The notes below the pieces were generated by a model that did no database searches, was not told where the DNA came from, and was given only the letters and a program-made list of their open reading frames with translations. Positions 5,873 through 5,963 of a DNA stretch of 11,118 nucleotides are shown here, one piece after another (position 1 is the first letter of the stretch; the number at the start of each line of letters is the position of its first letter). The stretch is from a virus (Duplodnaviria; Heunggongvirae; Uroviricota; Caudoviricetes). Position numbers and translations under genes: made by a program. Location: the IMG/VR virus record IMGVR_UViG_2713896789_000009; one strand, given 5' to 3'.

Positions 5873-5963
5873 AAAACTCTCCTGTTATTTCGAGCAGAAG
5901 GGTAACAATAGTTACATAACAATGTCAACCATAGCAACATCACTTGGTGGTAACATTGGTTAC
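5873..5963. promoter_or_regulatory. Divergent immunity control region: two operator-like palindromes GTAAC-N4-GTTAC (5902-5915 and 5950-5963) and a candidate PR (-35 TTGACA on the minus strand, rc of 5923-5928) for the Cro-like gene
   Basis: Inverted repeats read directly from the sequence. The operator falls in the spacer of the candidate promoter. The second palindrome abuts the repressor ATG at 5964, which would fit a leaderless PRM-type transcript. Confidence 0.55.

Follow-up and report, generated by a model that had tools for sequence, protein, structure and literature searches.

The question raised by this locus is whether short palindromes lying between divergent cro-like and cI-like genes are the operators of a lysis-lysogeny switch, and which proteins would read them. 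The locus lies on a stretch of 11,118 bases from a Caudoviricetes virus (IMG/VR record IMGVR_UViG_2713896789_000009; hereafter the window, meaning the whole stretch), which is 100% identical to a prophage in Escherichia coli 2013C-3181 and of the Qin-like lambdoid type. Its immunity region was found in 719 of 5426 complete E. coli genomes (∼13%). The comparisons described below suggest that the palindromes are very probably binding sites of the prophage repressor and Cro, laid out as in phage P22. We assign a probability of about 0.82 to the reading that they are the right operator (OR) sites of a P22-type lysis-lysogeny switch, in an immunity group without prior experimental characterisation. 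The type of switch is ordinary; the DNA recognition sequence is new, and no description of a GTAAC-N4-GTTAC operator was found in the searchable literature.

The original prediction, made from the sequence alone, had noted two palindromes with common GTAAC-N4-GTTAC half-sites between the two genes, and both could be read as exact matches, GGTAACaataGTTAC at 5901-5915 and GGTAACattgGTTAC at 5949-5963 (Table 1). ATG 5964 directly follows the last C of the second palindrome, as had been claimed, and the same arrangement was seen in every relative examined. The identity proposed for the flanking genes was likewise borne out by Pfam, with a P22_Cro-family cro gene on the minus strand and a cI gene with HTH_3 and Peptidase_S24 domains on the plus strand. 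A scan of the window for GTAAC-N4-GTTAC (GTAACNNNNGTTAC) allowing ≤1 mismatch returned three sites, at 5902, 5950 and 6713, all with 0 mismatches, against a chance expectation of 0.18; three sites were reached in 0 of 200 dinucleotide-preserving shuffles. Both of the noted palindromes are real, and the prediction stood up in each part open to computation, but the two-palindrome picture was incomplete, having missed the third perfect site at 6711-6728 (left operator, OL) and a weak OR2-like site at 5925-5938. Using a weight matrix trained on relatives only, with the window and its closest variant excluded, the three 18-mers scored 22.8 (OR1), 22.6 (OR3) and 20.2 bits (OL1), while the maximum scores of shuffled windows had a 95th percentile of 13.5 and a highest value of 18.2. 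A repeat search with a 6-base seed reported nothing at the palindromes because their arms are only 5-6 bp long. A candidate for a second OL site (6679-6696) was unsupported, as its score of 10.8 was within the shuffle range and its sequence was variable in the clade.

Homologues of cI were gathered at 89% down to 42% identity from E. coli, Salmonella, Hamiltonella, Kosakonia, Citrobacter, Arsenophonus, Edwardsiella and Erwinia, and loci from phages AH07, ST13-OXA48phi12.2, ZF40, mEp390, P22 and 21 were also compared. In all 13 loci sharing the recognition helix of the window repressor (45-100% cI identity), the sites start at -62 and -14 from the ATG, always 48 bp apart. Core mismatches at these two positions numbered one at most, except for OR3 of Hamiltonella, which has two. 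Across the 13 loci the information content was approximately zero between and upstream of the two sites, and a third conserved block was located at -39, 23 bp from the first and 25 bp from the last site, with the consensus CAAAC-N4-GTTAC in distant relatives. A P22_Cro-family gene was present upstream of the repressor gene in 9 of 9 loci with Pfam hits reported. The operator was retained in loci where a Phage_CP76-type CII gene replaces YdaT, and therefore tracks cI and Cro rather than the CII-type gene. The cI protein matched only two irrelevant helix-turn-helix (HTH) proteins (Ruminococcus, Onthoplasma) among GTDB genome contigs, the annotated phage collection INPHARED held no phage with the window repressor at >43% identity, and a nucleotide search of INPHARED matched flanking genes only.

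The 19-nt junction between operator and ATG was matched exactly in at least 120 IMG/VR contigs, from which 70 distinct upstream regions were chosen solely by the OR3-ATG junction. The repressor helix [ST]RVSVTKWE was encoded in all 70, and the -62 site was present with ≤1 mismatch in 69. The -39 register carried 2-4 mismatches in 70 of 70 regions, compared with 5-10 in control registers. After the cI stop, 68 of 69 loci carried one to three further sites within 330 nt, compared with a density of 0.025 per kb elsewhere. Among members of the E. coli clade the half-sites do not vary. Free variation is seen at the four bases separating OR1 from the -35, immediately upstream of OR1 and in the OL spacer; OL1 occurs with the spacers TCTT, TTCT and ACTT and keeps its half-sites. 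The right half of the OR2-like site also varies in the clade (GCAAC, GTAAC, GTGAC).

The proteins encoded on either side point in the same direction. The N-terminal domain of the repressor matched HTH_3 (E 3.5e-17) and the solved structures of the P22 repressor C2 (1ADR, 2R1J and 3JXB; E 1.3-1.6e-12, with query residue 5 aligned to C2 residue 6), and the whole protein matched the lambda cI structure. Helix 3 of the repressor, RVSVTKWE, is invariant in 11 aligned proteins, with a conservative variant, SRVTITKWE, in ZF40. In this prophage the helix reads SRVSVTKWE in cI and SHVAVVRWK in Cro; the corresponding pairs are NRVTVTGWE and SHASVSGWG in mEp390, and SNVAISQWE and SDAAVSQWK in P22 and phage 21. 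The seventh position of the helix changes in parallel in the two proteins (K/R in this prophage, G/G in mEp390, Q/Q in P22), a pattern to be expected of two proteins that recognise one operator. What has been observed directly is that the sites exist, that they occur more often than by chance, that their positions are fixed and that they are conserved together with the recognition helices.

The mEp390 locus resembles the window in that one palindrome abuts the repressor ATG, another lies further upstream and the Cro gene is divergent; its repressor is 41% identical. It differs in its half-site, GTAGG-N4-CCTAC, found within 100 nt upstream of the repressor ATG, and contains no GTAAC-N4-GTTAC site at ≤1 mismatch. 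Judged by these sequences, mEp390 is a natural specificity-switch partner of the window system. An alternative would be that the sites are read by only one regulator, Cro alone or cI alone, the other using different sequences in the region. There is a parallel in prophage CP-933P of E. coli O157:H7, where the footprints of the repressor and of YdaS overlap and the exact binding sequences could not be pinned down (PMC8630535). We regard this as improbable here, since the helices of cI (S-R-V-S-V-T-K-W) and Cro (S-H-V-A-V-V-R-W) are closely similar, in mEp390 and P22, where the half-site is another one, both proteins differ in parallel at the same position, and the intergenic footprint holds no conserved element apart from the three OR sites and promoter bases.

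The reading of the sites as operators of a P22-type switch is supported further by the layout of known P22-type regions. The repressor is homologous to C2 (36% identity over the whole protein) and shares the S24 domain, and cro is of the P22_Cro family. Like the window, P22 and phage 21 have 18-bp operators with a 4-bp central spacer, of which the one nearest the repressor gene extends to its ATG, and OL operators located just 3' of the repressor gene and its terminator; if the weak OR2-like candidate is counted, the window also matches their centre-to-centre distances of 23 and 25 bp (48 bp overall). For this comparison the operators of phage 21 were taken from the annotation of its record, and the P22 layout was read from its sequence. 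In the window, OR1 and OR3 are perfect; the candidate middle site is in the right register but matches only 6 of 10 core positions, its counterpart being clearer in distant relatives. A perfect OL site overlaps a promoter-like TTGACT-N17-TACCTT, as expected of an OL placed over the leftward promoter (PL). The differences are also clear. The half-site is GGTAAC in the window versus TTTAAG in P22 and phage 21, and OR3 is 2 bp closer to the ATG. In the window, the -35 of the rightward promoter (PR) lies over OR2 and its -10 inside OR1, whereas in our own reading of the P22 sequence a TTGACT lies between OR3 and OR2 and the -10 between OR2 and OR1. The window has one strong OL site versus three in P22 and phage 21 and, unlike them, has a strongly degenerate OR2 in its clade and a CII-equivalent gene of the YdaT type. 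P22 repressor contacts operator positions 2-7 and 12-17 but not the central four base pairs; these it reads indirectly, and binding is best when they are A/T-rich (PMC4267663). The analogous contacted block in the window operators would be GGTAAC, and OR1 (centre AATA) may bind better than OR3 (ATTG) or OL1 (TCTT).

The original prediction had also placed the first palindrome in the spacer of a candidate PR with a minus-strand TTGACA, and this held: TGTCAA was read on the plus strand, and the palindrome overlaps both the spacer and the -10. Clade variants of this -10 are TACCTT, TACCAT and TACTCT, always with T1, A2 and T6 kept. The plus-strand A at 5899 (-65 from the ATG), which is T6 of the PR -10, is an isolated invariant base outside the 18-mer in distant and close alignments alike; it is explained by the PR -10 and not by the operator. 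PR and PL share the design TTGAC(A/T)-N17/18-TGT-TACCYT, with an operator half-site making the extended -10 in both. For the promoter of repressor maintenance (PRM), the register of the candidate -10 is filled by TAACAT, TAACCT or TAATCT in all relatives, and in the window seven bases (5957-5963) separate TAACAT from the A of ATG 5964.

Measured from the predicted PR start, the operators are centred at about -16.5, -39.5 and -64.5, which resembles lambda, where the centres are at about -17, -41 and -64. Further likenesses to lambda are the divergent PR and PRM sharing a three-part operator, the S24 repressor and the predicted leaderless cI mRNA. The operators differ, being 18 bp with 5-6-bp arms and a 4-bp spacer versus 17 bp in lambda, and the Cro of the window belongs to the all-helical P22 type. 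Counted from the cI start, the centres are at -7.5, -32.5 and -55.5, ∼10 bp closer than those of lambda (-19, -42 and -66).

Several points weigh against the reading proposed here. The OR2-like candidate matches at only 6 of 10 core positions and was not among the 14 best-scoring 18-mers of the window by weight matrix. Its centre (5931.5) is ∼32.5 bp from 5964 rather than ∼42 bp as in lambda, and therefore PRM activation of the lambda type, from -42, does not fit. PRM has no recognisable -35, and the TG of an extended -10 is not conserved, as G5949 of the window is A in most variants. An automated sigma-70 promoter scan called none in 5600-6900, missing PRM, PR and PL because it demanded that ≥4 of the 6 positions match in both hexamers; the proposed -10 hexamers reach only 3-4 of 6. 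The promoters were hence assigned by hand and checked by conservation, and we consider the failure of the scan a real weakness of these assignments. No binding, footprint or transcription-start data for this immunity group were found in the searchable literature. Lastly, RefSeq (Prokaryotic Genome Annotation Pipeline, PGAP) annotates cI at 5922-6638 (238 amino acids), which places the second palindrome inside the gene, and ATG 5922 with its open frame is retained in the E. coli and Salmonella clade.

Were the RefSeq start right, the second palindrome would be intragenic (..GNIGY..) and would act, if at all, as a roadblock operator, with PRM further upstream and an mRNA that is not leaderless. 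Beyond the annotation itself and the retained frame, this start agrees with the 238-240 amino acids that gene callers give to relatives at 66-89% identity. The kept ATG is, however, part of the PR -35 (ATGTCAA), and the only conserved 'residues' of the 14-codon extension, MST and NIGY, are encoded by the -35 and the operator, respectively. Substitutions in the extension, counted by codon position in two comparisons (6, 5, 3 and 6, 5, 4), show no third-position bias, unlike those in the gene (23, 7, 34 and 20, 11, 48). In 5 of the 13 related loci, as well as in mEp390, P22 and phage 21, the upstream frame is closed by a stop, and no start codon follows that stop before the ATG. The Met encoded at 5964 does not vary; it is the first residue of homologues at ≤52% identity for which no N-terminal extension was called (219-223 amino acids), and solved structures of P22 C2 have chains starting at the homologous Met to within one residue. 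Neither ATG 5964 nor ATG 5922 has a Shine-Dalgarno sequence in front of it. We thus consider the start at 5922 quite unlikely; cI most likely starts at ATG 5964, judging from these alignments, and the RefSeq start is probably 14 codons too early. The fixed distance to the -10, the lack of a Shine-Dalgarno sequence and the upstream stops make a leaderless or near-leaderless PRM transcript of cI, with autorepression at OR3, the best reading, as the original prediction had suggested. Leaderless repressor mRNA has been shown experimentally for lambda cI and for paaR2 of CP-933P (PMC8630535), in the latter case by rapid amplification of cDNA 5' ends (5'-RACE) and N-terminal sequencing (PMC8630535, PMC9986795). 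Repressor starts were found to be inconsistent across records: gp10 of ZF40 is 26 codons too long and overlaps cro, the AH07 repressor is 8 codons too long, that of ST13-OXA48phi12.2 is annotated 4 codons short, and the phage 21 record starts 26 codons inside the gene.

A further possibility is that the palindromes work at the RNA level, as hairpins that alter the stability or translation of the cro or cI transcripts, and not as protein-binding DNA sites. Each palindrome can fold, and the OL sequence does so at -9.9 kcal/mol. We regard this as very improbable: the OR hairpins reach only -3.8 to -3.9 kcal/mol, with site 2 folding no better than shuffles (25 of 200 fold at least as well), OR1 and OL1 lie mostly upstream of the transcription starts under the promoter model, no Rfam family matched at the palindromes, and half-sites that are invariant rather than covarying, around a variable loop, are the signature of protein recognition. 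That the palindromes are functionless chance occurrences, for which only their short arms speak, is effectively refuted by their base-pair-exact positions in relatives at 45% identity with randomised flanks, alongside the shuffles above.

Homology with P22 C2 and P22 Cro leads us to infer the following for the P22-type switch as regards binding, use of the promoters, the leaderless start and the order in which the sites are occupied. Dimers of cI and of Cro, each through its helix 3, would bind the 18-bp xGGTAAC-N4-GTTACCx, contacting the outer six base pairs of each half and leaving the central four uncontacted. Since the half-sites supply the extended -10 of PR and PL, bound repressor would occlude RNA polymerase: on OR1 at the PR -10, silencing cro, ydaT and the replication genes, and on OL1 at the PL -10, silencing the ydfABC-dicF-dicB operon. 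PRM would most likely make a leaderless cI mRNA from 5963 or 5964. Occupation of OR3, over the -10 and +1 of PRM, by excess repressor or by Cro would turn cI off. The degenerate OR2-like site over the PR -35 probably needs cooperative help from OR1.

The C-terminus of the repressor carries a Peptidase_S24 domain (PF00717, E 9.7e-17), to which alone the RefSeq name 'LexA family protein' refers, and keeps the Ala99-Gly100 cleavage site and the KK motif. The nucleophile position is occupied by Ala137 (motif G135-D-A-M138, codon GCG at 6372-6374), where lambda, P22, LexA and most relatives have Ser (GNSM, GDSM or GESM), leaving the Ser-Lys dyad incomplete. The Ala137 allele is the common one in E. 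coli (cluster P0001, 499 members) and occurs in 13 of the 70 distinct IMG/VR variants; Ser is kept at this position in others, including a variant of the region referred to here as the 81.5% variant. The sequence predicts that an Ala137 repressor would not cleave itself and hence would not be RecA-inducible. One might go further and propose a 'locked' P22 switch, with neither positive autoregulation of the lambda type nor RecA inducibility, domesticated to silence the dicF/dicB operon and lytic genes rather than to decide between lysis and lysogeny. The grounds for this would be the missing nucleophile, the decayed OR2 and a control of cI that is solely negative, exerted at an operator merged with -10, +1 and start codon of a leaderless mRNA; we hold the proposal to be doubtful.

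CP-933P, with its regulators PaaR2, YdaS and YdaT, was considered as the same system. It resembles the window prophage in being cryptic and lambdoid, in having a CII-equivalent gene of the YdaT type and an OL-like region 3' of the repressor operon, and in the YdaT-type inverted repeat at the cro/ydaT junction. It was rejected because repressor and operators differ: the PaaR2 repressor lacks an S24 domain, the Cro is of the YdaS type instead of the P22_Cro type, and the operators are 18-bp palindromes with the half-site consensus GTTTAGTAA. The window copy of the inverted repeat, TTGATTTTCATGAATCAT at 5650-5667, is a 1-mismatch copy of the YdaT operator TTGATT-N6-AATCAA and is positioned exactly at the junction of the cro stop and the ydaT start, where the OM site of CP-933P was footprinted, which suggests a YdaT-controlled element resembling the promoter of repressor establishment (PRE). 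YdaT-operator matches with ≤3 mismatches showed no overall enrichment in the window. A LexA box was also considered in the predicted 5' untranslated region of cro (CTGTTATTTCGAGCAG, 5882-5897) and rejected; it has 1 mismatch and is not conserved in the 81.5% variant, and the window contains 4 matches to CTGT-N8-ACAG with 1 mismatch versus 3.2 expected, not above chance.

Table 1. Coordinates of operators, promoters and genes of the immunity region within the window
Feature	Coordinates	Strand	Sequence or composition	Relation or basis
OR1-like operator	5900-5917		18-mer GGGTAACAATAGTTACAT; core GTAAC-AATA-GTTAC at 5902-5915	Overlaps PR spacer and -10
Weak OR2-like candidate	5923-5940		Core TCAAC-CATA-GCAAC at 5925-5938	Left half overlaps PR -35
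OR3-like operator	5948-5965		18-mer TGGTAACATTGGTTACAT; core GTAAC-ATTG-GTTAC at 5950-5963	Covers PRM -10 and +1, abuts cI ATG
OL1-like operator	6711-6728		AGGTAACtcttGTTACCT; AGGTAAC-TCTT-GTTACCT, perfect 7+4+7 palindrome	Overlaps PL spacer and -10
PR -35	5923-5928	minus	TTGACA	Read in sequence; invariant in clade; TTGCTA or TTTGCT in distant relatives
PR extended -10	5899-5907 (hexamer 5904..5899)	minus	TGT-TACCCT, from OR1 left half-site	18-bp spacer; predicted start near 5890-5892
PRM candidate -10	5951-5956	plus	TAACAT, in OR3 left half-site	Predicted start 5963 or 5964 (A of ATG)
PL-like promoter	6701-6729	plus	TTGACT (6701-6706), 17 bp, TGT-TACCTT (6721-6729; hexamer 6724-6729)	Read in sequence, kept in variants
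cI repressor gene	5964-6638	plus	224 amino acids; HTH_3 + Peptidase_S24	Pfam, structure matches, alignment; RefSeq start 5922 (238 amino acids)
cro gene	5657-5872	minus	71 amino acids; P22_Cro family; helix 3 SHVAVVRWK	Pfam PF14549 (E 2.9e-16), annotation, Cro alignment
YdaT-family (CII-equivalent) gene	5235-5660	minus		
Antiterminator Q family gene, DUF977, replication-type HTH protein		minus		Gene order beside the finding
Intrinsic terminator after cI	6642-6668	plus	10-bp stem, then T-run	Fold energy -15.1 kcal/mol, z-score -3.7

The cro gene is preceded by a ribosome-binding sequence, GGAGAG. The terminator after cI is kept in variants, and an automated terminator scan overlooked it although it is clear. 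On the plus strand 3' of this terminator and of the PL-like promoter the order is ydfA, ydfB, ydfC, DicF and dicB, as in the Qin prophage, with the DicF small RNA at 8148-8199 (+; 75.8 bits) between ydfC and dicB in the PL operon. A segment at 6743-6840, 3' of PL and 5' of ydfA (ACCCACCCCGCCCCACAGAACGC...GGTTAAGTAGCCAGCCCGAGGCGTAAGAACATGACGGCAGGG), is near-invariant even in the 81.5% variant, in which the sequence just before it diverges and carries an indel; this segment could be a nut-like or leader element. Elsewhere in the window, a sok antitoxin RNA was identified at 79-254 (-), adjoining hokD, and 50 N characters at 9454-9503 interrupt the sequence inside an exonuclease gene annotated in the matching genome.

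The general understanding of such switches is unchanged by this finding. What it provides, by comparison alone, is an operator code (xGGTAAC-N4-GTTACCx) and a promoter layout for an immunity group that also includes the isolated phages Pectobacterium ZF40, Pantoea AH07 and Klebsiella ST13-OXA48phi12.2. For E. coli strains carrying the window prophage, expression of dicF and dicB is probably under the control of OL/PL; dicF and dicB affect cell division and, in pathogenic E. coli, virulence regulation. Together with P22 and phage 21 (TTAAG) and mEp390 (GTAGG), the group forms a natural series on one scaffold in which cI, Cro and operator change in step, a series useful for understanding the origin of new immunities and for obtaining orthogonal repressor-operator pairs.

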